From Nitrosopumilus sp. (GTDB lineage Archaea > Thermoproteota > Nitrososphaeria > Nitrososphaerales > Nitrosopumilaceae), in the NCBI GenBank assembly GCA_965214775.1, contig OZ243974.1, positions 320,001-384,000 of the forward strand: a stretch of DNA of 64,000 nucleotides, read 5' to 3'. Under the pieces are notes generated by a model that saw only the letters and a list, made by a program, of their open reading frames with translations, did not search any database and was not told the DNA's origin. Positions 13,759 to 44,941 of the stretch are shown here, piece by piece (position 1 is the stretch's first letter; each line of letters opens with the position of its first letter). A program made the translations under genes and the position numbers.

Positions 13759-13917
13759 CTTTCTCTCCTCTAAAGAGAGAAAAGTTACATAAAATATACG
13801 GTTTGAGGCAAATGCTCCCACATAAGGGCAATGAGCGTGTCCTGTCCTGTCCTGAGGCAAGGGAGACGCTGGAAAAGTACAAAGGCGAGATCACAAGGGC
13901 AATGAGCGTGTCCTGTC

Positions 13918-14088
13918 CTGAAAGTTGATTCAAAGTTGGCAGATTTGGATCATGTGCAATAAGCGAATTTACATGGAATAATCGATCAAGATGCCTGCAA
14001 ATGAAAAGTCATCCGTATGCAAAATTACCTGGCAAATGTGCAAAAGAATCCGGTCATCTGCAGTTTCTAATTTCGGATCCTCTCTCAG
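13918..14088. mobile_element. MITE family A copy (longer, degenerate)
   Basis: Ends ctgaaagttgattc / ctaatttcggatcctctctcag match 17790-17930 and 51531-51673. Confidence 0.75.
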
Positions 14089-23904: not shown

Positions 23905-24090
23905 GGATGCAGTCAAGAACATCAAGAAGGAAGAGGAGGAAGAGGAGCAGAACCGCACCGACAGCGCGGATGCAGTCAAGAACATCAAGAAGGAAGAGGA
24001 GCAGAACCGCACCGACAGCGCGGATGCAGTCAAGAACATCAAGAAGGAAGAGGAGCAGAACCGCACCGACAGCGCGGATGCAGTCAAGAT
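23905..24090. repeat. 54-bp tandem repeat x3 in the outer IS5 transposase
   Basis: Encodes (DAVKNIKKEEEQNRTDSA)3; the first copy has three extra Glu. Confidence 0.93.
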
Positions 24091-25194: not shown

Positions 25195-26198
25195 ATGCCT
25201 AGCTTTAGCGAGATTCAAAAGGAGATACTGGAGGAAAGGGCTCCGGAAACCAAGCATGATACGGTCTGAATCTGCGGCCCAATATGCAAATATCGCAAAA
25301 GAAGGAGGAAAGGGCTCCGGAAACCAAGCATGATACGGTGAGAAGAAGATATCTTGCGAAAATGTCCGAAAAGACAGGCAGAAACACAATACTGTACTAC
25401 TCGGGATGGCTACAAAAGCCGGTCAGGAGCATTTCCGCGTTGACGTCGATCAGCGACAATGACAAAAATGGCTTTATGAGTGTAATACGAGGACTGGATG
25501 TCTCCAAAGGTCTTGACATAATACTGCATACCCCCGGGGGAGACATAGCAGCTACGGAATCCCTCATAGACTATCTTAACCAAAAATTTCACGGAGACAT
25601 GAGGGCGATTATCCCACAACTTGCCATGTCCGGTGGGACGATCATAGCTTGTGCGTGCAAGGAAATAGTGATGGGAAAGCAATCCAGCCTGGGACCCATC
25701 GATCCGCAGATAAACGGGCTGGCCGCATCTGGGATCGTGTCAGAATTTTATCATGCAAGCAAGGAGATGAAACATGACAGAAGCAAGATCAACGTGTGGG
25801 GACCGATCATATCCAGTTATCCGCCATCACTTGTTGAAAACTGCAAGAAGGCGATATCCTGGTCCAAGGAGCTTGCGTCAGACTACCTGTCCGGCTCCAT
25901 GTTCAGAGATGATTTAAAGCTCGATCATGGTCCAGTCCAGCAAAAAATTGATGGCATCATACGCCTTTTGACGGATCAAAACATGACCAAATCACATTCA
26001 AGACACATACCAATGCCGGTATGCCAAAATACCTGATTGAAGATAGTAGAGATGGAAAAAGATCATGATCTGCAAGACATCATTCTCTCGGTACACCACG
26101 CCTCAGCACTGACAATTATGAACACGCCTACTGTCAAAATAATAGAAAACCAGAACGGGCAGGCATACATTTCTGGATATTCCAAGACGCCTGCGTGA
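25195..26198 (+). pseudogene. SDH/ClpP-fold (S49-like) serine protease, disrupted
   Basis: YYSGWLQ, LILHTPGG, AMSGGT, SSLGPIDPQ, HSRHI; 74-bp insertion near the start and an in-frame TGA at 26034-36, with the frame continuing to 26198. Confidence 0.85.
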
Positions 26199-31173: not shown

Positions 31174-31283
31174 GTAGCAGGTCGGACTCTGGAGGTTCGG
31201 GCGTGAGTTTTGCCACCTCGGAGGCCTCTCCCAGGCAGATTCGTGCCCGGAGTCAGGAAGGCTTCCAGAGTCCGACCTGCTAC
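31174..31283. mobile_element. MITE family D copy
   Basis: TIR gtagcaggtcggactctgga / tccagagtccgacctgctac; contains the TAG of the giant gene. Confidence 0.9.
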
Positions 31284-34200
31284 CATTTTGCCGATTTCGA
31301 ATCGGTCCTTCTCGGCAGCAGCAGCGGCAGTAGCAGCCGCCTTGCAGCGACGATGGCGGCCGCAGGGGCTGCCACGTACATGCCCACGTTCAGGGCGATG
31401 ACCGAGGCGCCTAGCGCCAGTACGGATGACTCGGAGCCCTCCCCTGCAAACGACATTATCGACAGTGTCAAGATCATCGGCGTTATGGCAATCCTTACGG
31501 CATCGCGAAACTCTGGACTCTGGCGCTCCAAGTCGGCTACCGCGGGCGAGAACAAATAGTATACGGAATTGAATCCGGCAACGAATGAGGCACCCGAGTC
31601 AGTCGAGAACAGCACGCCGTCGCGTATCTCCCTGAGTGCCTGTACTTGTGGTGCCAGCTCGGTGCCGTATGCGGCAGTCGCTATCAGGCATGCGCCACCC
31701 GGCTCAGACTCGAGCACTGGCTCAGGCTCTGGCTCTGGTTCGGGCTCTGGTTCGGGCTCTGGCTCAGACTCGGGTTCGGGCTCCTCCGCCGGCGGCGGTA
31801 CCTGCGGATCTGCTGCCGGCGCCGGCGGTCTCATCGCATCATCATGAGCCGCATCACGCTGCTGCTGCATGACTGCCTGCCTGCCGGCATTATCTACAAG
31901 CGCGGACGGCGGAAGTTCATAGTACGTGCGCTTGCCTGCGCATGCGTCCATGACTATCGACTGATGATCAGAGGTGACGGTCCCTTCAAATGGCATGATT
32001 GCGCTGACGCCGACGTATGATGTGCCGGTCTGGCGCATCGGTGCCGTAAACGTCATGTACCAGTCAGTCGCCTCGCCCGTGGCTGCAGCCCGGGTTACGC
32101 CGTCCCCGGCGGTGCGCACCGAGACCCAGAGGCTGTCGGAGACGGGTCCGGCGTCGATTGTTACGAGTCCGGCAGAACAGTCCCACGATATTGAGGCTAT
32201 GTATGCGGGATCCACGAATTTTCCCCGGCCGGTGTGGTTGAAGTGTTGGCCTACGCTACCTTCTCCGGTACCTCCTTGATCGCCTATGGGACTCCTGTTG
32301 TCGTTGCCGTCGTCGTCGTTGTCATCATCATCGCCGGCTCGGATAAGCTCGGTGAGTATGATCGGGTTGTCCGGCGATTCCTCTATCGGGTTGCCCAGTA
32401 TGTCCGATACTGCGGCGGTGGAGATGTCCAGCTGCGGCGTGCCCATCGGGATCACCCGATTTAGTTGTGACTCGACAAGCGTGAGCGAAAGGGTCTCGAC
32501 ATCGGCTGACGAAAAGTCCATCTCGGCACCATCAAGCAGCACGGTGTTTGTCTGGCCCTCGTCGCTGACATACAGCAACGACAGGTTGGTGGCAGAAACG
32601 TCTACCGTCTCGCTGAAGGCGATAGTCATGGCGCCCGTGTTCTCATCAAGTGTAGCCGAGGAAAAGGCGGGCCTGTCGTTCTCGATGAGCGCTATCGGGT
32701 TGTCCGGCGACTCATCTATCGGGATGCCCAGCAGATCCGATACTGCGCCGGTGGAGATGTCCAGCTGCGGCGTGCCCATCGGGATCACATGACGCAGCTG
32801 GGAGCCGGCAAGGGTAAGGGAGAGGGTCTCGACATCGGCTGACGAAAAGTCCATCTCGGCACCATCAAGTGGGATCGTATTTGTCTGGTTCTCGTCACTA
32901 ATGTACAGCAGCGACAGACCGGTTGCCGATATGTCAACGGTCTCGCTGAAGGTGACTGTCATGGCGCCCGTGTTCTCATCAAGGGTCGCCGATGTAAAGG
33001 TAAGAGGCGGTAATCTGTCGCTGACATGTACGATCCTGGTCACCTGATCCGGCTCGTTGCCTGCAGCATCTGCCGGCGCAGTATAGGTTACGGTGTATGT
33101 ATTTACCGAGTCGACGTCTACCGTGTCGCCTCCGACGGTGGCCTCGGTGGTGGAGTACGCGCGATCGTTGTCAGATACGGTGGCGCCCTGCTCGGTGTAG
33201 GTGCCTCCAAGCTCGACTGTGACGTTCTGGTCGCCTGTAAGAGTGATGACGGGTTTTGTTGTGTCGCGCACCTGAACCGTCCTGGAGGCCATGCCCTTGT
33301 TGCCCTCCCCGTCAGTGGCGCTGAAGTTTACGATATAGTCGCCTTTCACGTAGACGTCGACTGCCGTGGAATTGATGATCACTGTAGAGCCGTCGTCTGC
33401 CGTGGCGCCCGGATCCGTGTAGGGACTGTCGCCCATCTCGTGGGCCAGCGGGTTGTCGCCGTCAAGCGTGATTATAGGGGCGTTTGTATCCTGGACTATG
33501 ACGGTGCGGGTCACCGTATCGGGGACGTTGCCTGCAGCGTCCGCAGGCGCCGAGTATGTTATCGTGTAGGTGGCCACCGAACCGGTGTCGACTGCGCCGG
33601 ACGGGGTTGCGGTCCCGGCGTACAGGCGATCGTTGTCAGTCACCGTGGCGCCTTGCTCCGTGTATGTGTCGCCCTTTTCGATCGTGATGTTCTGGTCCCC
33701 GGTAATCTCGATGACCGGCTTTGTGGTGTCGCGCACCTGAACCGTCCTGGAGGCCATGCCCTTGTTGCCCTCCCCGTCAGTGGCGCTGAAGTTTACGACA
33801 TAGTCGCCGTGCACGTAGACGTCGACTGCCGTGGAATTGATGATCACTGTAGAGCCGTCGTCTGCCGTGGCGCCCGGATCCACGTACGGGGAGTCGCCCA
33901 TCTCGTGCTCAAGCGGGTTGGCGCCATTAAGGGTGATTATAGGGGCGTTTGTATCCTGGACTATGACGGTGCGGGTCACCGTATTGGGTATGTTGCCCGC
34001 GCCGTCTGCAGGCGCCGTATAGGTTACGGCGTATCTTCCCACGGAACCGGTGTCGACGGTGGCGCCCCCGACTGCCGCCTCGGTGGTCGTGTACGCCGGG
34101 TCGTTGTCAGATACCGTGGCGCCCTGCTCGGTGTACGTGCCGCCCTTTTCGATCGTGATGTTCTGGTCGCCTGTAAGAGTAATGACGGGCTTTGTGGTGT

Positions 34201-37200
34201 CCTGCACCTTCACGGCCCGGGTGGCCGTCGCCGTGTTGCTTGACGGATCGGTGGCAGTGTAGGTGACGGTATAGTCGCCGGACCGGCCGGCGTCCACGCC
34301 GGCAGAGTCGTTTGTCACAGTCCCGTCGTAGAGCGGATCGTTGTCGGTGGCAGTGGCGCCGGCGTCCGTGTAGTCGTCTCCCAGCTCGACTGTGGCCGGA
34401 TCATCGCCGGCTACGGAGATGACCGGCTTCGTGGTGTCGCGCACCTGCACGGTCCTGGAGGCCATGCCCTTGTTGCCCTCCCCGTCAGTGGCGCTGAAGT
34501 TTACGATATAGTCGCCTTTCACGTAGACGTCGACTGCCGTGGAATTGATGATCACTGTAGAGCCGTCGTCTGCCGTGGCGCCCGGATCCGTGTAGGGACT
34601 GTCGCCCATCTCGTGGGCCAGCGGGTTGTCGCCGTCAAGCGTGATTATAGGGGCGTTTGTATCCTGGACTATGACGGTGCGGGTCACCGTATCGGGGACG
34701 TTGCCTGCAGCGTCCGCAGGCGCCGAGTATGTTATCGTGTAGGTGGCCACCGAACCGGTGTCGACTGCGCCGGACGGGGTTGCGGTCCCGGCGTACAGGC
34801 GATCGTTGTCAGTCACCGTGGCGCCTTGCTCCGTGTATGTGTCGCCCTTTTCGATCGTGATGTTCTGGTCCCCGGTAATCTCGATGACCGGCTTTGTGGT
34901 GTCGCGCACCTGAACCGTCCTGGAGGCCATGCCCTTGTTGCCCTCCCCGTCAGTGGCGCTGAAGTTTACGACATAGTCGCCGTGCACGTAGACGTCGACT
35001 GCCGTGGAATTGATTGTCACGGCAGAGCCATCATCTGTAGTGGCGCCCGGATCCGTGTACGGGGAGTCGCCCATCTCGTGCTCAAGAGGGTTGTCGCCGT
35101 CAAGCGTGATTATAGGGGCGTTCGTATCCTGGACTATGACGGTTCTAGTCACAGTATCGGGGACGTTGCCCGCCTCGTCTGCCGGCGCGGTATAGGTTAC
35201 GGCGTATCTTCCCACGGAACCGGTGTCGACGGTGGCGCCCCCGACTGCCGCCTCGGTGGTCGTGTACGCCGGGTCGTTGTCAGATACCGTGGCGCCCTGC
35301 TCGGTGTACGTGCCGCCCTTTTCGATCGTGATGTTCTGGTCGCCTGTAAGAGTGATGACGGGCTTTGTGGTGTCCTGCACCTTCACGGCCCGGGTGGCCG
35401 TCGCCGTGTTGCTTGACGGATCGGTGGCAGTGTAGGTGACGGTATAGTCGCCGGACTGGTCGGCGTCCACGTTGACAGAGTCGTCTGTCACAGTCCCGTC
35501 GTAGAGCGGATCGTTGTCGGTGGCAGTGGCGCCGGCGTCCGTATAGTCGTCTCCCAGCTCGACTGTGGCCGGATCATCGCCGGCTACGGAGATAGTCGGC
35601 GGCGTCGTGTCGCGCACCTGCACGGTCCTGGAGGCCATGCCCTCGTTGCCCTCCCCGTCGGTGGCGCTGAAGTTTACGACATAGTCGCCGTGCACGTAGA
35701 CGTCGACTGCCGTGGAATTGATGATCACTGCAGAGCCATCATCTGTAGTGGCGCCCGGATCCGTGTACGGGGAGTCGCCCATCTCGTGCTCAAGAGGGTT
35801 GTCGCCATTAAGGGTGATTATAGGGGCGTTCGTATCCTGGACTATGACGGTTCTAGTCACAGTATCGGGGACGTTGCCCGCCTCGTCTGCCGGCGCGGTA
35901 TAGGTTACGGCGTATCTTCCCACGGAACCGGTGTCGACGGTGGCGCCCCCGACTGCCGCCTCGGTGGTCGTGTACGCCGGGTCGTTGTCAGATACCGTGG
36001 CGCCCTGCTCGGTGTACGTGCCGCCCTTTTCGATCGTGATGTTCTGGTCGCCTGTAAGAGTGATGACGGGCTTTGTGGTGTCCTGCACCTTCACGGCCCG
36101 GGTGGCCGTCGCCGTGTTGCTTGACGGATCGGTGGCAGTGTAGGTGACGGTATAGTCGCCGGACTGGTCGGCGTCCACGTTGACAGAGTCGTTTGTCACA
36201 GTCCCGTCGTAGAGCGGATCGTTGTCGGTGGCAGTGGCGCCGGCGTCCGTATAGTCGTCTCCCAGCTCGACTGTGGCCGGATCATCGCCGGCTACGGAGA
36301 TAGTCGGCGGCGTCGTGTCGCGCACCTGCACGGTCCTGGAGGCCATGCCCTCGTTGCCCTCCCCGTCGGTGGCGCTGAAGTTTACGACATAGTCGCCGTG
36401 CACGTAGACGTCGACTGCCGTGGAATTGATGATCACTGCAGAGCCATCATCTGTAGTGGCGCCCGGATCCGTGTACGGGGAGTCGCCCATCTCGTGCTCA
36501 AGAGGGTTGTCGCCGTCAAGCGTGATTATAGGGGCGTTCGTATCCTGGACTATGACGGTTCTAGTCACCGTATCGGGGACGTTGCCTGCAGCGTCTGCCG
36601 GCGCGGTATAGGTTACGGCGTATCTTCCCACGGAACCGGTGTCGACGGTGGCGCCCCCGACTGCCGCCTCGGTGGTCGTGTACGCCGGGTCGTTGTCAGA
36701 TACCGTGGCGCCCTGCTCGGTGTACGTGCCGCCCTTTTCGATCGTGATGTTCTGGTCGCCTGTAAGAGTGATGACGGGCTTTGTGGTGTCCTGCACCTTC
36801 ACGGCCCGGGTGGCCGTCGCCGTGTTGCTTGACGGATCGGTGGCAGTGTAGGTGACGGTATAGTCGCCGGACTGGTCGGCGTCCACGTTGACAGAGTCGT
36901 TTGTCACAGTCCCGTCGTAGAGCGGATCGTTGTCGGTGGCAGTGGCGCCGGCGTCCGTATAGTCGTCTCCCAGCTCGACTGTGGCCGGATCATCGCCGGC
37001 TACGGAGATAGTCGGCGGCGTCGTGTCGCGCACCTGCACGGTCCTGGAGGCCATGCCCTCGTTGCCCTCCCCGTCGGTGGCGCTGAAGTTTACGACATAG
37101 TCGCCGTGCACGTAGACGTCGACTGCCGTGGAATTGATGATCACTGCAGAGCCATCATCTGTAGTGGCGCCCGGATCCGTGTACGGGGAGTCGCCCATCT

Positions 37201-40200
37201 CGTGCTCAAGAGGGTTGTCGCCGTCAAGCGTGATTATAGGGGCGTTCGTATCCTGGACTATGACGGTTCTAGTCACCGTATCGGGGACGTTGCCTGCAGC
37301 GTCTGCCGGCGCGGTATAGGTTACGGCGTATCTTCCCACGGAACCGGTGTCGACGGTGGCGCCCCCGACTGCCGCCTCGGTGGTCGTGTACGCCGGGTCG
37401 TTGTCAGATACCGTGGCGCCCTGCTCGGTGTACGTGCCGCCCTTTTCGATCGTGATGTTCTGGTCGCCTGTAAGAGTGATGACGGGCTTTGTGGTGTCCT
37501 GCACCTTCACGGCCCGGGTGGCCGTCGCCGTGTTGCTTGACGGATCGGTGGCAGTGTAGGTGACGGTATAGTCGCCGGACTGGTCGGCGTCCACGTTGAC
37601 AGAGTCGTTTGTCACAGTCCCGTCGTAGAGCGGATCGTTGTCGGTGGCAGTGGCGCCGGCGTCCGTATAGTCGTCTCCCAGCTCGACTGTGGCCGGATCA
37701 TCGCCGGCTACGGAGATAGTCGGCGGCGTCGTGTCGCGCACCTGCACGGTCCTGGAGGCCATGCCCTCGTTGCCCTCCCCGTCGGTGGCCTTGAATGTTA
37801 CGACATAGTCGCCGTGCACGTAGACGTCGACTGCCGTGGAATTGATTGTCACGGCAGAGCCATCATCTGTAGTGGCGCCCGGATCCGTGTACGGGGAGTC
37901 GCCCAGCTCGTGGCGCAGCGGGTTGGGTGGGTTGAGGTTTATGACAGGGGCAGTCATGTCGCTGACTGTGACTGTCCTGGTAACAGAATCGGGCATGTGG
38001 CCTGCGGCGTCTGCCGGGGCCGTGTAGGACACGACATAGGTTCCCAGCGAGTTTACGTCGACGGTGTCGCCGCCGACTGTCGCCTCGGTGGTCGTGTACG
38101 CAGGATCGTTGTCAGACACCGTGGCGCCCTGCTCGGTGTAGGTGCCGGTGCCCAGCTCGATCGTCATGGTCGCGGCCCCGTTTAGCGTAATGACCGGCTT
38201 CGTGGTGTCCTCGACGGTCACCGTCCTGTCCACGTCATCGGGCTCGTTGTTTGCGGCGTCTGCCGGGGCCGTGTAGGTTACCGTGTAGGTGCCCGCTGCG
38301 TTTGTGTTGACCGTGTCTCCCCCGACGGTCGCCTTGGTGGTTCCGTACGCCGGGTCGTTGTCGGAGACGGCGGCGCCCTGCTCTGTATACGTACCGGTGC
38401 CCAGCTCGACTGTCATAGTCGCGTTTCCTTTTAGTGTAATGACGGGGCTCGTGGTGTCGCGCACCTCGACTGTTCTGGTGGCAGTGCCGGTGTTGCTGCT
38501 CCCGTCAGTCGCGCTGAATCTGACAGTATAGTCTCCGCTCACGTTGACGTCGACGTCGGAGTCGTCGATGGTTACGTCCGAGTTGTCGCTTGCAGTGGCG
38601 CCCGGATCCACGTACGGGGAGTCGCCCAGCTCGTGGCGCAGCGGGTTGGGTGGGTTGAGGTTTATGACAGGGGCAGTCATGTCGCTGACTGTGACTGTCC
38701 TGGTAACAGAATCGGGCATGTGGCCTGCGGCGTCTGCCGGGGCCGTGTAGGACACGACATAGGTTCCCAGCGAGTTTACGTCGACGGTGTCGCCGCCGAC
38801 TGTCGCCTCGGTGGTCGTGTACGCAGGATCGTTGTCAGACACCGTGGCGCCCTGCTCGGTGTAGGTGCCGGTGCCCAGCTCGATCGTCATGGTCGCGGCC
38901 CCGTTTAGCGTAATGACCGGCTTCGTGGTGTCCTCGACGGTCACCGTCCTAGTCACGGGAACCGGCACGTTGCCTGCCGCGTCGGCCGGCGCCGTATAGG
39001 TTACGGCATAGTCCCCCTTGACGTCTGCGTTCACCGCTCCGGTGGCGGTTGCCGTCCCGTCATACGCAGGGTCGTTGTCAGTCACCACGGCACCCGGATC
39101 CTCATACTCGTCTCCCAGCTCGTGGGCCAGCGGATCAGAACCGTTGGGCGTGATCACCGGCGGCGTCGTGTCGCGCACCAGGACCGTCCTTTCGACGATC
39201 CTGGTGTTGCCGTGCGCGTCCGTGGCCGTATACGTCACGGCATAATCGCCCCGCTTGCTGACGTCTACGTCCGAGTGGTCTATGATCACCGGCGCGTCGT
39301 ACGCGGGATCGCTGTACAGTACCGTCGCGCCCGGATCCTTATATGGAGTCCCGAGCTCATGGGTCAGCGGGTCGTCGCCGACAAGCATGATTATCGGCCT
39401 TGCGTGAACGTTGGTGACCAGCTTCCACACCTGGATCCCGTCCTCGCCGGAGGAGACCGTCACCGCGTACGCGTTGCCGCGAAGCTCAAATGCGTCCACG
39501 CCGCGGGTGTCCCGAAGTAGATCGTCCTCGCCGGCCAAAAGATCTCCCGCAAAGACAGGAATGTCCGGATTCGATATGTCGATTAGTCTCAGTCTGTCGT
39601 CAGAGCCCGACGCTATGACCCCGTATGTCGTGCCGCCTATCTCGAATATGTCCAGATCGCGGTTGTCTGCGCGTATCAGTGGGGCGATGCCGCCCTCGTA
39701 CCTCAGCTGCCCGGCAGGCTGCAGATTCCGCGGGTCGGTAATGTCGACAATCTGGAGGCCCGCGCCGAGAAGCGAGGTTATGGCCGCGTAGGTGTTGTCG
39801 CCGGACTCGAAGATGTCCACGTCACGGGTGTCCTCAAGCAGCAGTTCGTCGGTATCCGTCAGAGTTCCAAGGACCGTCGGGCTCATGGGGTCGGTGACAT
39901 CGAAGATCACGATGTCATATGTTGTAGGCTGTACGAGTATGGAGGATCTGGTAACGATCCCGTACGTGTTCTGTCCCTTCTTGTACGTATCGACCGCGAT
40001 GGGGCTGATGCCACGCCAGTCGGTCTCAGGCCCGCCCAGATGGCCTGCCGCCGTGATGTTGGCAGGGTTCGTGATGTTCAGTACCTGCAGGCCGTTCTCC
40101 TTGAATGCGGTGACTATCGCGTAGGTAAGGTCGCCTATCCTGAAGATGTCCACGGTCCTGCTGTCGGTGAGCAGCGTGGGATTGGGTTCGGTTCTGTCCT

Positions 40201-43200
40201 CGAAGGATCCCGCGGGCAGGGGGTCGGTGGGATCGGTGATGTCTACCAGCTGGAGGCCGTGATTCTCCATTTCGGATGCTACGGTGGCCGCATATATCCT
40301 GTCTTTCAGCATGAAGATGTCGATGTCGCGCACGCCCTCAAGCAGCAGATCTTCGTTGTCTGATATCCGGCCTGCCGGGATCGGGGCGTCCGGGTCCGTG
40401 ACGTCGACTATCTGGAGGAAGGACTCGCTGTCGGAGGTCGCTACCGCGTATGTGCCCCCGCCCGTCTCATAGGTGTCCACCGCGTAGGCGGAGCCAAGAT
40501 GCAGGCCCGGATCGGTGCTCAGACTCCCCCTGGGAATTGGGCTGGCGGGGATCGCGATGTCTACGATCTGGATGCCGTTCTCTTCCCTAGAGATCACTAT
40601 CGCGTGGACGGAGCCGTCTAGCTCGAACGTACGCACTACGTTGGCGTCTTTAAGTAGTGTGTATTCCGTGTCAGGCAGGAATCCTGCTGCGAGCGGCATC
40701 TTCGGATCGGTGATGTCGACCAGCTGGAGGCCGTGATCGCTTGAGGATGCCACGGCCGCGTAGGTGCTGCCGCCTATCTGAAACGTGTCAACGTCCGACG
40801 CACCGCCAAGCAGCAGTTCGCCGGTGTCTGCAAGCTGCCCTACAGCCGCAGGATTGTCAGGAGTGGTGACGTTGATTATCTGAAGGCGGCCCGGAGTGGA
40901 TATGGATGTCACGGCCGCGTAGGTGCTGCCGTCCGCCTCAAAGACGTTCACGCCGGTGGAGTACAGGAGAGGCACCTCGCTGGTGTGCAGCACGCGTCCG
41001 GCATTTTCAGGAGTATCAGGATCGGTGATGTCGACCAGCTGTAGGCCGCCTTCGTCTAAGGAGGTCACGGCCGCGTAGGTGCTGCCGCCTATCTGAAACG
41101 TGTCCACGTCCGACGCACCGCCAAGCTGCAGGTCGTCGCTGTCTGCAAGCTTGCCGGCAGCTGTAGGGCTACCCGGATCGGTGATGTCGACTATCTGGAG
41201 GCCGCCTGCTCCGAATGAGATCACGGCCGCGTAGGTGCTGCCGCCTATGGCAAATGTGTCAACGTCGACGACATCATCAAGCAGCAGGTCGTCGCTGTCT
41301 GTAAGATTGCCGGCAGCTGTAGGGCTACCCGGATCGGTGATGTCGACTATCTGGAGGCCATCTTCTTTATTGGATGTCACGGCTGCGTAAATGTTGTTGT
41401 CTATCCTGAATGTGTCGACTCCGTGCGCCTCGCCCAGCAACACGCTGTCGTCTTCTGCAAGTTGTCCTTCTATTATGGGCCTGTTCGCGTTGTTAACGTT
41501 GACAATCTGGAGGCCTCCGCTCTTGTCGGAGGTCACCGCCGCGTACTTGCCCCCTCCTGTCTCAAATACGGCAACATCCTTTGCAGACTCGAGCAGCATG
41601 AACGAGTCGTTCGTGATGTCCGCCGTCGTCACCGTGTTGAGTACCACCGTGACGGGGTTGTCAGCCGACTCGCTTATGGCGTTTCCAACGACGTCGTATA
41701 CCGCGCCGGCCCCTATGTCGATCTGCGGGGTGCCCATGCGGATCACCAGCAGGCGCTGGAGCTCGTCAAGCTCCAGCGATATCGTCTCCGGGCGGCTCTC
41801 GTCAGATACCTGGACGGCATCATCCAGCGAGACCTCGCTGTCCTGTCCCGTCTCGCTCACGTGTAGCAGGGCCAGGTCCGTCCGGGAGCCGTCCAGTGGC
41901 TCGCTGAACGTGATCGACAGCACGCCCTCGTTCTGGTCAAAAAAGGCCGACACGAACGCCGGACCCAACGTATCCCGCGCGTGCAGCTTGACAATCTGGA
42001 GGCCGCCGTCGACTCCGGATGTAACTGCCGCGTAGACGGATCCGTCCAGCTCGAACATATCCACGCGGTTTGCGCCTCCAAGCAGCGTGTCTATCGTGTC
42101 AGTCAGGACTCCTGCTGTGGCCGGCTTCCTCGGATTGCTGATGTCGACTACCCGGAGACCGTCGTCGGCGGGGGAGGTCACGACAGCGTAGACGGATCCG
42201 TCTATCCGAAACGTGTCCACGTCCTGCGCGTCGTCAAGCGACAGCGGGTCACCGTCCGCTAGGCTTCCGACGACGGCCGGACTGGCCGGGTTCGTGACAT
42301 CGATTATGACAAGGTTGTCATCGGATGCTGATACAGCTACCGCGTACGTCCTGCCATCCGCCTCAAAGATGTCCATTCCCTTGAGAACCGACAGCAGCTG
42401 GTCAGGAGTGGAGGGCGGCACCTGTCCGGCCGCTGTCGGGTTGTCAGGATCGGTGACATCAATTATCTGGAGGCCGCCTTCAGTAAGGGATGTCACGGCC
42501 GCGTATGTGTTGCTGCCTATCCGAAACGTGTCCACGTCATAGGCGCCGCCAAGCAGCAGCTCGTCCTCACCCGGCGGGTCTGTAGGCTCTGTGTCTTCAA
42601 GCTGCCCGGCCGCTGTCGGGTTGTCAGGATCGGTGACATCAATTATCTGGAGGCCGCGGCTCTCAAGGGAGATCACGGCCGCGTATGTGTTGCTGCCTAT
42701 CCGAAACGTGTCCACGTCCCACGCGCGTTCAAGATACAGGGAGCCGTCCTCTATGCTTCCGGCGGCGGCCGGACTGGCCGGGTCCGTGACGTCGACCAGC
42801 TGGAGACCGTCCTCGCCGCGCGAGGTCACCGCCGCGTACGTCCTGCCGTCGGCCTCGAAGATGTCCACACCGAGTGCGCCGCCAAGCAGGATCTGCTCGT
42901 TGTCCTGCAGGCCTCCCGCGGGTACCGGATGCGCGGGATCGGTGATGTCGACCAGCTGGAGACCGCCCTCCACGCGCGAGGTCACCGCCGCGTACGTCCT
43001 GCCGTCGGCCTCGAAGACGTCCACGTGATCGGTTTTGCGTAGCAGCAGGTCGCCGCCGTCGGCCAGGCTTCCGGATGGCTCCGGATGATCCGGGCCGACG
43101 TACGCCACGGGGTTGTCTGCCGACTCGTCTATGGCGTTTCCGGCAAGGTCCCTGACGGCACCGGTGGCTATATCGATCTGCGGTTCGGTCATGGCGATCA

Positions 43201-44941
43201 CGGCGCGCAGCTGCTGCTCGCCTAGCGTGACGGAGAACGATGCCGAGTCGGCGGCGTTCGGATCATGGCCCATGCCGGCCAGAGGTATCTGGTTGTCCTG
43301 TTCCGCCTCGCTGATGTACAGCATGCCGGCGTCCGTCTCCGAGGCATCCAGGATCCCATCAAAGTATATCGTCAGATCCCCCGTCTCCACGTCCAGGTAG
43401 GCGCTCTCAAATGCAGGCTTTGTGACATCCGGCACGACGTCTATCGTGTTGCCCTCGGAGGCCGTGATGTATTGCCCGTCCAGATCCGTCACAGCGCCGT
43501 CCCCGATATCGAGATGCGGCGTATCCAGCGCGATGACGTCCCGCCACTGGGACACCGTAAGCGTAAGCCTGATCGAGACTGTCTCCGAATCGTCCCCACG
43601 GTCGTAAACCGTGGCGCCTGCCAGGCTGACGCTGTCCTGTCCCGGACTGCCAATGTGCAGCCGCGACGTGTGGATCGCGTTGACGTAGACCTTCTCGTCA
43701 AACGTCACGGTCAGTACGCCCGTGTTCTCGTCGAATTCGGCTGACTCGAATTCCGGTCTGAGGGACTCTAGCTTGACGACCTGAAATCCTTCGTTGGAGG
43801 ACACGGCAACGTGCGTGTCGCCGTCGGCCTCAAAGACGGCCACGTCACGGACACGTTTAAGCAGCAGGGAGTTGCTGTCGGACAAGCTCCCTGCGGTGAA
43901 AGGGCTGTACGGATCGGTGACGTCGACAAGCTGAAGAGTGCTGCGCGTGGGGAACGCTACCACCGCGTAGGTTCTTGCGTCCACCACGGCTATTCCCACC
44001 CCGTACGTTTTAGCAAGCAACAGCTCGTCTGTGTCTTTTATCTGCCCGGCCGCTGTAGGGTTGTCAGGATCGGTAACGTCTATGATCTGGAGGCCGCCGC
44101 TGGCGCGGGACGTTACCGCCGCGTATGGCTTCTCCCCGATCTCAAAGATGGTCACACCCCGGGTTTTGTTAAGCAACAGATCCTCCCCACCCCCGTTTGT
44201 AGTCTCGGTGTATGCAAGATTCCCTGCGGCGGCGGGACTGTCCGGGTTTGTGATATTTATAATCTGGAGACCGTTTTCATTGATGGAGGTCACGGCCGCA
44301 TATGTGCTGCTGCCTATCTGAAACGTGTCCACGTCATGCGCGCCGCCAAGCAGCAGTGTGTCGTCATCTGCAATCTTTCCGGCGGCGTCCGGATCATAAG
44401 GATCGGTGACGTCTATGATCTGGAGGCCGCCGCTGGCGCGATTCGAGGCCACGGCCGCATAGGTGTTCTGTCCGATTGCAAACGTGTCCACGCCGAAGGC
44501 CTTGCCGAGTAGCAATCCGTCCGAGTCACCAGTATCTACCAGATGTCCTGCCGTTGACGGACTGGCCGGGTTTGTAATATTTATAATCTGGAGGCGGTGC
44601 TCCCCAAAGGAGGTCACGGCCGCGTATGTGCTGCTGCCTATCTGAAATGTGTCCACGTCACGGGTGTCATCAAGCATTGCTAGCTGGCTGACGGGGGACG
44701 GATTGCCCGGATTGGTGACATCGATCAGTTGGAGGCCGCCTTCACTAATGGATGTCACGGCCGCGTATGTTCTACTGCCTATCTCAAATGTGTCCACACC
44801 ACGGGCTTCACCAAGCAGTACTGACGGGCTCTCATCCAGCTGGCCGGCGGGCACCATCCTGATCAGCAGACTCTGCTGCGAGTATGCCTCGTGCATGTAG
44901 CCCATGCCTGCCAGGCCCGAGACGGCAGCTGCGGTTATCAC
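31280..44941 (-). CDS. giant surface protein (4553 aa): LVIVD beta-propellers, Ig-like domains, DUF5011 array, CFI-box-CTERM anchor
   Basis: Repeated YAAVTS..GLQIIDVTDP blades; about 25-27 DTT.PVITL.G...Y...GAT..D units; PEPE linker; GGACLIATAAYGTELAPQVQ.LRE.RD plus TM. Confidence 0.93.
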   Translation of the reverse strand: MITAAAVSGLAGMGYMHEAYSQQSLLIRMVPAGQLDESPSVLLGEARGVDTFEIGSRTYAAVTSISEGGLQLIDVTNPGNPSPVSQLAMLDDTRDVDTFQIGSSTYAAVTSFGEHRLQIINITNPASPSTAGHLVDTGDSDGLLLGKAFGVDTFAIGQNTYAAVASNRASGGLQIIDVTDPYDPDAAGKIADDDTLLLGGAHDVDTFQIGSSTYAAVTSINENGLQIINITNPDSPAAAGNLAYTETTNGGGEDLLLNKTRGVTIFEIGEKPYAAVTSRASGGLQIIDVTDPDNPTAAGQIKDTDELLLAKTYGVGIAVVDARTYAVVAFPTRSTLQLVDVTDPYSPFTAGSLSDSNSLLLKRVRDVAVFEADGDTHVAVSSNEGFQVVKLESLRPEFESAEFDENTGVLTVTFDEKVYVNAIHTSRLHIGSPGQDSVSLAGATVYDRGDDSETVSIRLTLTVSQWRDVIALDTPHLDIGDGAVTDLDGQYITASEGNTIDVVPDVTKPAFESAYLDVETGDLTIYFDGILDASETDAGMLYISEAEQDNQIPLAGMGHDPNAADSASFSVTLGEQQLRAVIAMTEPQIDIATGAVRDLAGNAIDESADNPVAYVGPDHPEPSGSLADGGDLLLRKTDHVDVFEADGRTYAAVTSRVEGGLQLVDITDPAHPVPAGGLQDNEQILLGGALGVDIFEADGRTYAAVTSRGEDGLQLVDVTDPASPAAAGSIEDGSLYLERAWDVDTFRIGSNTYAAVISLESRGLQIIDVTDPDNPTAAGQLEDTEPTDPPGEDELLLGGAYDVDTFRIGSNTYAAVTSLTEGGLQIIDVTDPDNPTAAGQVPPSTPDQLLSVLKGMDIFEADGRTYAVAVSASDDNLVIIDVTNPASPAVVGSLADGDPLSLDDAQDVDTFRIDGSVYAVVTSPADDGLRVVDISNPRKPATAGVLTDTIDTLLGGANRVDMFELDGSVYAAVTSGVDGGLQIVKLHARDTLGPAFVSAFFDQNEGVLSITFSEPLDGSRTDLALLHVSETGQDSEVSLDDAVQVSDESRPETISLELDELQRLLVIRMGTPQIDIGAGAVYDVVGNAISESADNPVTVVLNTVTTADITNDSFMLLESAKDVAVFETGGGKYAAVTSDKSGGLQIVNVNNANRPIIEGQLAEDDSVLLGEAHGVDTFRIDNNIYAAVTSNKEDGLQIVDITDPGSPTAAGNLTDSDDLLLDDVVDVDTFAIGGSTYAAVISFGAGGLQIVDITDPGSPTAAGKLADSDDLQLGGASDVDTFQIGGSTYAAVTSLDEGGLQLVDITDPDTPENAGRVLHTSEVPLLYSTGVNVFEADGSTYAAVTSISTPGRLQIINVTTPDNPAAVGQLADTGELLLGGASDVDTFQIGGSTYAAVASSSDHGLQLVDITDPKMPLAAGFLPDTEYTLLKDANVVRTFELDGSVHAIVISREENGIQIVDIAIPASPIPRGSLSTDPGLHLGSAYAVDTYETGGGTYAVATSDSESFLQIVDVTDPDAPIPAGRISDNEDLLLEGVRDIDIFMLKDRIYAATVASEMENHGLQLVDITDPTDPLPAGSFEDRTEPNPTLLTDSRTVDIFRIGDLTYAIVTAFKENGLQVLNITNPANITAAGHLGGPETDWRGISPIAVDTYKKGQNTYGIVTRSSILVQPTTYDIVIFDVTDPMSPTVLGTLTDTDELLLEDTRDVDIFESGDNTYAAITSLLGAGLQIVDITDPRNLQPAGQLRYEGGIAPLIRADNRDLDIFEIGGTTYGVIASGSDDRLRLIDISNPDIPVFAGDLLAGEDDLLRDTRGVDAFELRGNAYAVTVSSGEDGIQVWKLVTNVHARPIIMLVGDDPLTHELGTPYKDPGATVLYSDPAYDAPVIIDHSDVDVSKRGDYAVTYTATDAHGNTRIVERTVLVRDTTPPVITPNGSDPLAHELGDEYEDPGAVVTDNDPAYDGTATATGAVNADVKGDYAVTYTAPADAAGNVPVPVTRTVTVEDTTKPVITLNGAATMTIELGTGTYTEQGATVSDNDPAYTTTEATVGGDTVDVNSLGTYVVSYTAPADAAGHMPDSVTRTVTVSDMTAPVINLNPPNPLRHELGDSPYVDPGATASDNSDVTIDDSDVDVNVSGDYTVRFSATDGSSNTGTATRTVEVRDTTSPVITLKGNATMTVELGTGTYTEQGAAVSDNDPAYGTTKATVGGDTVNTNAAGTYTVTYTAPADAANNEPDDVDRTVTVEDTTKPVITLNGAATMTIELGTGTYTEQGATVSDNDPAYTTTEATVGGDTVDVNSLGTYVVSYTAPADAAGHMPDSVTRTVTVSDMTAPVINLNPPNPLRHELGDSPYTDPGATTDDGSAVTINSTAVDVYVHGDYVVTFKATDGEGNEGMASRTVQVRDTTPPTISVAGDDPATVELGDDYTDAGATATDNDPLYDGTVTNDSVNVDADQSGDYTVTYTATDPSSNTATATRAVKVQDTTKPVITLTGDQNITIEKGGTYTEQGATVSDNDPAYTTTEAAVGGATVDTGSVGRYAVTYTAPADAAGNVPDTVTRTVIVQDTNAPIITLDGDNPLEHEMGDSPYTDPGATTDDGSAVIINSTAVDVYVHGDYVVNFSATDGEGNEGMASRTVQVRDTTPPTISVAGDDPATVELGDDYTDAGATATDNDPLYDGTVTNDSVNVDADQSGDYTVTYTATDPSSNTATATRAVKVQDTTKPVITLTGDQNITIEKGGTYTEQGATVSDNDPAYTTTEAAVGGATVDTGSVGRYAVTYTAPADAAGNVPDTVTRTVIVQDTNAPIITLDGDNPLEHEMGDSPYTDPGATTDDGSAVIINSTAVDVYVHGDYVVNFSATDGEGNEGMASRTVQVRDTTPPTISVAGDDPATVELGDDYTDAGATATDNDPLYDGTVTNDSVNVDADQSGDYTVTYTATDPSSNTATATRAVKVQDTTKPVITLTGDQNITIEKGGTYTEQGATVSDNDPAYTTTEAAVGGATVDTGSVGRYAVTYTAPADEAGNVPDTVTRTVIVQDTNAPIITLNGDNPLEHEMGDSPYTDPGATTDDGSAVIINSTAVDVYVHGDYVVNFSATDGEGNEGMASRTVQVRDTTPPTISVAGDDPATVELGDDYTDAGATATDNDPLYDGTVTDDSVNVDADQSGDYTVTYTATDPSSNTATATRAVKVQDTTKPVITLTGDQNITIEKGGTYTEQGATVSDNDPAYTTTEAAVGGATVDTGSVGRYAVTYTAPADEAGNVPDTVTRTVIVQDTNAPIITLDGDNPLEHEMGDSPYTDPGATTDDGSAVTINSTAVDVYVHGDYVVNFSATDGEGNKGMASRTVQVRDTTKPVIEITGDQNITIEKGDTYTEQGATVTDNDRLYAGTATPSGAVDTGSVATYTITYSAPADAAGNVPDTVTRTVIVQDTNAPIITLDGDNPLAHEMGDSPYTDPGATADDGSTVIINSTAVDVYVKGDYIVNFSATDGEGNKGMASRTVQVRDTTKPVISVAGDDPATVELGDDYTDAGATATDNDPLYDGTVTNDSAGVDAGRSGDYTVTYTATDPSSNTATATRAVKVQDTTKPVITLTGDQNITIEKGGTYTEQGATVSDNDPAYTTTEAAVGGATVDTGSVGRYAVTYTAPADGAGNIPNTVTRTVIVQDTNAPIITLNGANPLEHEMGDSPYVDPGATADDGSTVIINSTAVDVYVHGDYVVNFSATDGEGNKGMASRTVQVRDTTKPVIEITGDQNITIEKGDTYTEQGATVTDNDRLYAGTATPSGAVDTGSVATYTITYSAPADAAGNVPDTVTRTVIVQDTNAPIITLDGDNPLAHEMGDSPYTDPGATADDGSTVIINSTAVDVYVKGDYIVNFSATDGEGNKGMASRTVQVRDTTKPVITLTGDQNVTVELGGTYTEQGATVSDNDRAYSTTEATVGGDTVDVDSVNTYTVTYTAPADAAGNEPDQVTRIVHVSDRLPPLTFTSATLDENTGAMTVTFSETVDISATGLSLLYISDENQTNTIPLDGAEMDFSSADVETLSLTLAGSQLRHVIPMGTPQLDISTGAVSDLLGIPIDESPDNPIALIENDRPAFSSATLDENTGAMTIAFSETVDVSATNLSLLYVSDEGQTNTVLLDGAEMDFSSADVETLSLTLVESQLNRVIPMGTPQLDISTAAVSDILGNPIEESPDNPIILTELIRAGDDDDNDDDGNDNRSPIGDQGGTGEGSVGQHFNHTGRGKFVDPAYIASISWDCSAGLVTIDAGPVSDSLWVSVRTAGDGVTRAAATGEATDWYMTFTAPMRQTGTSYVGVSAIMPFEGTVTSDHQSIVMDACAGKRTYYELPPSALVDNAGRQAVMQQQRDAAHDDAMRPPAPAADPQVPPPAEEPEPESEPEPEPEPEPEPEPEPVLESEPGGACLIATAAYGTELAPQVQALREIRDGVLFSTDSGASFVAGFNSVYYLFSPAVADLERQSPEFRDAVRIAITPMILTLSIMSFAGEGSESSVLALGASVIALNVGMYVAAPAAAIVAARRLLLPLLLPRRTDSKSAKW
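33100..38950. repeat. near-identical internal DNA repeats of the DUF5011 array
   Basis: Identical shadow ORFs recur at 708-bp period (35223, 35931, 36639, 37347), plus 1173-bp (34050/35223) and 723-bp (38027/38750) offsets. Confidence 0.95.

Follow-up and report, generated by a model that had tools for sequence, protein, structure and literature searches.

The window examined here, a stretch of 64,000 nucleotides from a Nitrosopumilus species (contig OZ243974.1, positions 320,001 to 384,000), carries inside a gene for a ClpP-like serine protease a short repeat-insert-repeat unit. We interpret this unit, with a probability of about 0.78, as the scar of a natural off-target integration by Cas1-Cas2 at a site outside any CRISPR array. 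The interpretation draws on the anatomy of the unit, on the empty site in a relative, on the exact source of the insert and on a population of similar units in a genome with an intact type I-B adaptation module. Plain coordinates below are positions in the window; those introduced by the word 'genome' refer to the whole chromosome.

Structure and origin of the scar

An exact 36-mer (GGAGG...ACGGT) occurs twice in the window, at 25230-25265 and at 25304-25339, with a start-to-start distance of 74 bp, and the similarity of the two copies extends to 41 nt at 95%. An exact 36-bp repeat at this spacing cannot be chance. The copies enclose 38 unrelated bases (25266-25303, plus strand), which lack terminal inverted repeats. 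Both the geometry and the absence of inverted repeats had been noted in a preliminary description made from the letters alone, and both hold. The boundary of the insert is ambiguous by one base, because the repeat begins (25304) with a G, the base that also comes next in the donor gene identified below; the event can therefore be read as 36 + 38 or as 35 + 39 bp. The first copy, to which no strand is assigned (nor is one to the second), comprises the codons for EERAPETKHDTV of the protease. The repeat consists of protease coding sequence, has only these two copies and is absent from the rest of the genome, and the unit is not a genuine CRISPR array, which is marked by a shared or recognized repeat, several units and a leader.

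The insertion is real, and it is the derived state. In sequencing runs X3, X4 and X6, both junctions (25236-25295 and 25275-25333) are spanned by contigs whose depth equals that of the flanks, and the 39-nt word of the insert and the 36-nt word of the repeat are found in the runs at about twice that depth, as words present in two copies should be; in run X4 the second copy of the target is represented by a 36-nt contig at about twice the flank depth. These three runs may come from the source sample of the assembly and thus give read support, not independent replication. The empty site was found in run X1, which belongs to a different study and samples a relative differing at about one base in ten (~90% identity). 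A contig of 3416 nt from this run joins 25229 directly to 25304, skipping exactly 74 bp (25230-25303), and the lowered depth of the run over the insert reflects these skipped bases and not missing cover. A homologue of the protease with 93% protein identity (L017) likewise has an uninterrupted N-terminus, beginning MPSFSEIQKEVLEERAPDTKYDTVRRRYL, and more distant homologues agree with it. The single copy of the 36-mer in the relative and in L017 bears out the earlier view that the repeat is a duplicated coding target. Assemblers can be misled by short repeats, but an assembly artefact is a far-fetched explanation of the scar when the contigs of three runs span both junctions at flank depth and when the empty-site joint is absent from these runs and found only in a diverged relative.

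The insert has one other copy in the 2.83 Mb chromosome, at genome 1393038-1393076 on the minus strand, approximately 1.05 Mb from the scar and identical at 39 of 39 nt. This segment corresponds to codons 37-50 of a single-copy gene for an F420-dependent NADP oxidoreductase of 223 residues (PF03807). Since the orthologue in another relative (G023; 80% protein identity) contains the same segment, the PF03807 gene is the donor, from which the sequence in the scar was copied. In the donor, cag precedes the segment at its 5' end and (g)cgt follows it at its 3' end; the junction homology at the scar amounts to 0 and 1 nt.

CRISPR systems of the genome and related scars

The genome encodes a single Cas1 (336 residues; TIGR00287, 218 bits), which is part of a complete type I-B operon with the gene order cas4-cas2-cas1-cas6b-cas3-cas5-cas7-cas8b1; the adaptation genes cas4, cas2 and cas1 are intact. 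Adjoining the operon is array 1 (genome 2420114-2425007), with 68 repeats of 37 bp and 67 spacers, whose lengths are 35 (25 spacers), 34 (16), 36 (12), 37 (five), 33 (three), 38 (one) and 39 bp (one), with four outliers. In an orphan array, array 2 (genome 1977219-1978062), 12 repeats of 36 bp, of which the final one is degenerate, alternate with 11 spacers of 36-39 bp. No cas genes were found in its neighbourhood, which includes VirD4-like, prepilin peptidase-like and actin-like genes and resembles a conjugative element. None of the 78 array spacers has a match above 22 nt in the genome, and no match was found among GenBank phages for the leader-proximal spacers of array 1 or for any spacer of array 2. 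In a comparison that the preliminary description had proposed, the dimensions of the scar fit those of the native arrays: the target duplication of 36 (or 35) bp is within 1 bp of the native repeat lengths of 36 and 37 bp, and the insert of 38-39 nt lies inside the native spacer range (33-39 with a mode of 35 in array 1 and 36-39 in array 2).

The scar is one of many. A scan for isolated exact direct-repeat pairs (repeats of at least 20 bp, periods of 40-120, tandem arrays and the native arrays left out) gave 110 pairs in the genome, 58 of which have periods of 70-76, and a mismatch-tolerant scan gave the same period peak. The 59 pairs with periods of 69-77 were cleaned by removing six copies of one 25/50 pair borne on an insertion sequence (IS), a collagen-like tandem, a multi-copy element and nine pairs with repeats shorter than 30 bp. 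This left 42 events in 2.83 Mb (~15 per Mb), which are mutually unrelated in that their repeats and inserts all differ in sequence. Their period is 72.9 +/- 1.3, and the most frequent duplication length is 36 bp (13 events), followed by 37 (eight), 35 (five) and 38 bp (four).

Donors elsewhere in the genome could be assigned to 14 of the 42 inserts (30-39 nt, 94-100% identity), as against none of the 78 array spacers (Fisher p = 8e-8); five of the 14 donors belong to multi-copy IS elements. Such an excess of self-derived sequence off the arrays would fit self-targeting that is lethal in a working array and harmless without CRISPR RNA (crRNA). The repeats of the scar would not be substrates of Cas6, which makes production of crRNA from this unit unlikely; a lack of crRNA from the scars would in turn explain why self-derived inserts are tolerated off the arrays and are absent from true arrays.

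The ends of the duplicated targets show base preferences. When both ends of the 42 duplications are pooled (84 ends), G is found at position -3 in 37 (p = 3e-5) and C at -2 in 31, while on the other side the favoured bases are G at +1 (37 ends), T at +2 (32), G at +4 (36) and A at both +6 and +7 (34 ends in each case). Judged against base composition, the most significant preferences have p-values of 3e-5 to 8e-5. The pooled ends resemble, with matches at -3, +4, +6 and +7, the leader-repeat junction of array 1, which consists of gct immediately before GTCGTAAT, and they fit this junction at least as well as they fit the ends of array 2. At the left end of the protease scar, act immediately before GGAGGAAA, six of 11 positions equal the array-1 junction (p = 0.03), which is weak for a single event. 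The events overall are slightly more like the native repeats than random sites are (z of ~3.3); the protease scar is not.

Cas1 was found in 50 of 151 genomes of the family and in one of nine further genomes of the genus, a tally that includes two unpublished genomes. The congener concerned, G053 (1.6 of 1.70 Mb read), encodes a single Cas1, which falls into the same score class as that of the study genome, and has an array of its own, with a 36-nt repeat and periods of 70-75. It carries six isolated scars with periods of 69-73 and duplications of 35-37 bp, and two of the six have exact self donors. A congener without a Cas1 hit (G078) has no array and no such scar in the 1.2 of 1.61 Mb read. 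Scar counts thus go with Cas1 over three genomes: 42 and six where it is present and none, in 1.2 Mb read, where no hit was obtained. Separately, G053 contains at G053:C1:43914-44022 a unit of two repeats and one spacer whose 37-nt repeat is very similar to that of array 1 of the study genome and unlike that of the main G053 array; it is either a genuine mini-array or the remnant of a second system.

Several further observations concern the scars and their donors. At genome 1266843-1267015 three copies of one 36-mer enclose two different spacers, the second of which equals a 12-copy IS; the 5' end of the first repeat copy differs by an indel, and the locus is a possible nascent array. The 16 kb around it contain six of the 42 events. 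In long open reading frames (ORFs) at genome 617292, 974020, 1267835, 1275414 and 2297249, events of period 72 leave the frame open and lengthen it by 24 codons (for example, 615 versus 591 and 834 versus 810 residues), and these could be protein-coding insertions by spacer integration. The window itself holds a second scar-like unit at 13824-13920, an exact 26-bp direct repeat at a period of 71, in whose insert 33 nt are 94% identical to a 7-copy element and whose boundaries are blurred by a TCCTG run. Clusters of donors, noticed post hoc, lie close to the cas locus (genome 2405777 and 2445016) as well as at 1.02-1.09 Mb. Neither an origin nor a terminus stands out clearly in the cumulative GC skew, so that the positions of events and donors are not tied to replication. 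For the event at genome 2776475, the first 11 nt of the donor equal the end of the array-1 repeat, but the DNA around them is no degenerate repeat and the agreement was taken as coincidence.

Proposed mechanism and alternatives

We infer that Cas1-Cas2 was the agent of scar formation. A prespacer of 38-39 nt would have originated by cutting of the host's F420-dependent NADP oxidoreductase gene, and its two 3' ends would have been joined to the protease gene on opposite strands, with 36 bp between the two points of joining, giving full-site integration at a site whose borders weakly mimic the leader-repeat junction. Gap filling or repair would then have duplicated the 36 bp, as occurs with the repeat in a real array. 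Ectopic spacer acquisition had been put forward in the preliminary description, which named four findings that would speak against it; none of the four was obtained. The genome does contain a Cas1, and in a complete operon; the insert is not a miniature inverted-repeat transposable element (MITE) or neighbouring sequence but an exact copy from a distant single-copy gene; the isolated pairs do form a sharp genome-wide length peak, which survives cleaning; and the contigs support the assembly, with the relative providing the empty site.

A number of points weigh against this interpretation. The 36-mer of the protease scar agrees with the native repeats at only nine and 11 of 36 positions, the random mean being ~10.4, so that a likeness to the native repeat, which the preliminary description had proposed to look for, did not materialize. 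Its further suggestion of a protospacer with a protospacer-adjacent motif (PAM) was half borne out: the exact 39-nt source lies in the genome, but no PAM could be shown, and no common flank motif was found among the 14 donors, whether oriented by the better leader-like end or taken in either orientation. The array spacers, without matches in the genome and, for the leader-proximal ones of array 1 and all of array 2, in GenBank phages, yielded no native PAM to compare with. The modal duplication of 36 bp is 1 bp short of the 37-bp repeat of the cas-adjacent array. The inserts (mean length 36.7; n = 30) are longer than the spacers of array 1 (35.1; p = 4e-7) and do not differ from those of the orphan array 2 (37.5; p = 0.11). 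Integration may therefore have been the work of a module other than the resident one, or else the prespacers escaped trimming by Cas4. Five events (genome 90701, 305641, 849741, 1281865 and 2701975) have duplications of 43-46 bp and inserts of 26-32 bp at a period that is still 70-76, a combination that the simple model does not predict; in the three of them with known donors, the donor match extends 3-5 nt into the repeat. Finally, the comparison of relatives is small, with three genomes, two of them partly read, which are too few for a test.

Some of these points would be accounted for if the integrase had been the Cas1-Cas2 of a second module, tied to the orphan array 2 and since lost or acting in trans, perhaps from the conjugative-element-like DNA beside that array. 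We consider this unlikely, though it is the alternative that fares best. The modal duplication equals the repeat length of array 2, the insert lengths fit its spacers and not those of array 1, and array 2 itself stands without cas genes next to its VirD4-like, prepilin peptidase-like and actin-like neighbours. However, the genome has one Cas1 gene only, the pooled ends favour array 2 no more than they favour the array-1 junction, and G053 makes scars of 35-37 bp with a single Cas1. Deletion of Cas4 leads to PAM-less spacers of altered length, and the longer, PAM-less inserts seen here could equally be prespacers that escaped Cas4 trimming in the resident system.

It is less likely again that the scars, which have the form X-Y-X, were made by a process independent of CRISPR and that their CRISPR-like geometry is coincidental. 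Such a process might be an integrase with a 36-bp stagger, although we know of no such enzyme, or template switching, in which ~37 nt would be copied from a remote template before a return to a point 36 nt upstream. The lack of a PAM and the five events with odd duplication lengths agree with this explanation, as does an overlap of 3-5 nt between donor and target in three cases, which hints at microhomology. Template switching, however, predicts variable lengths and microhomology at the junctions, whereas the period is nearly constant over 42 sites and the protease scar has junction homologies of 0 and 1 nt. In addition, the scars have the lengths of the native repeats and spacers both in the study genome and in G053, their ends resemble a leader-repeat junction and the 1.2 Mb read of the Cas1-less congener G078 contain none of them. 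The event of a casposase (a transposon-borne Cas1), which the preliminary description had offered as a variant, or the mark left by the excision of an IS or MITE is a most improbable source that the data already contradict: IS elements are indeed present in the window, but the sole Cas1 lies between cas2 and cas6b in the cas operon and there is no solo casposase, the insert is a piece of a housekeeping gene without terminal inverted repeats, all 42 inserts differ, and the target duplications of casposons and IS elements fall far short of 36 bp.

Consequences for the protease gene and the genome

The reading frame upstream of the insert (25195-25269, plus strand) translates as MPSFSEIQKEILEERAPETKHDTV; these 24 codons match the N-terminus of L017 (MPSFSEIQKEVLEERAPDTKYDTV) and are followed by a TGA stop codon formed by the first letters of the insert. 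The remaining protease ORF (25284-26036, plus strand) encodes 250 residues (PF01972, SDH-type ClpP-like serine protease; E = 3.2e-21) and opens at an in-frame ATG within the insert. The insertion removed 14 N-terminal codons of the protease. Because the insert supplies this ATG, a slightly altered protease is possible, and the enzyme may still be expressed, with eight new N-terminal residues replacing the 14. The gene is flanked by an IS transposase on one side and by a type I restriction specificity subunit on the other.

On a broader level, we are inclined to think, less firmly than in the case of the single scar, that the adaptation machinery acts as a chronic endogenous mutagen in this wild archaeon of the ammonia-oxidizer type. 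It would have left at least 42 fixed off-array integrations, a third of them self-derived and apparently PAM-less, and in doing so would have truncated genes, added in-frame inserts of 24 codons and, at one site, seeded a two-spacer proto-array. If this is true, the scars chart, in natural form and filtered by selection, which targets and prespacers an archaeal Cas1-Cas2 prefers in vivo, and they are a live example of the birth of new CRISPR arrays. For one event the donor, target, empty site and enzyme genes are all in hand, among some 40 sister events. This makes testable the cost of adaptation to the host, the recognition by the integrase in vivo without guidance by a leader, and whether self-derived, PAM-less prespacers are routinely captured and then purged from functional arrays. 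The scars also carry a warning for annotation, in that isolated repeat-spacer-repeat units of this kind are neither mini-CRISPRs nor mobile elements.

The window also contains two other repeat families. A perfect 54-bp tandem repeat of 2.8 copies lies at 23937-24089; tandem series of its unit are also present at several further loci of the genome, ten copies long at genome 1876142, for example. On the minus strand, an ORF of 4553 residues (31280-44941) is rich in internal repeats of 156, 249, 333 and 465 bp, and repeat genes of the same 156-bp period are found in many places in the genome.

Comparison with known systems

Casposons have in common with the events described here a Cas1-family integrase that duplicates its target. 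They are of kilobase size, have terminal inverted repeats and duplicate a short stretch of target; the present genome, in contrast, contains no solo Cas1.

Ectopic spacer acquisition within CRISPR arrays is described for Streptococcus thermophilus and S. mutans (PMC7999890; PMC8265633). It shares with the scars an integration away from the leader-proximal repeat, but the streptococcal events use genuine internal repeats of an array, whereas the target here is protein-coding sequence unrelated to any repeat. Closer is the behaviour of the Pyrococcus furiosus Cas1-Cas2 in vitro, which integrates at non-CRISPR sites of plasmids with G/C borders one repeat length apart (PMC6698737). There, G and then C is favoured at the joined base and several repeat-like positions are conserved, which may be set beside the G at +1 in the pooled ends of the present study and their agreement with the leader-repeat junction at -3, +4, +6 and +7; the spacing is 30 bp on plasmids in vitro as against 36 bp in chromosomal fossils. 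The type I-B integrase of P. furiosus is further described as promiscuous for prespacer length without Cas4-2, and histone is described as lowering its off-target integration (PMC13748974).

The nearest precedent is the off-target integration by the type I-E Cas1-Cas2 of Escherichia coli that gives rise to neo-CRISPR loci (Nivala, Shipman and Church, Nat Microbiol 2018), as represented in texts that cite this work (10.1101/148544; PMC6698737; PMC9456107). In both cases an ordinary genomic site has been duplicated over the length of a repeat around an insert of spacer length, and in both further spacers can be taken up, for which the locus at genome 1266843-1267015 may be compared. The duplication in E. 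coli is 28 bp, whereas that seen here is 36 bp, and the present scars are wild, fixed, archaeal, numerous and often self-derived. The E. coli events required artificial up-regulation of the acquisition machinery, and natural evidence of off-array integration is described as circumstantial only and as confined to two species (10.1101/148544). Our literature search, which took in main texts without supplements and few subscription journals, turned up no publication describing numerous scars of this type in a wild genome, which is not proof that none exists. The phenomenon as such is already in print, from E. coli and from P. furiosus in vitro, and the scar in the protease gene is an unusually well documented natural case of it.
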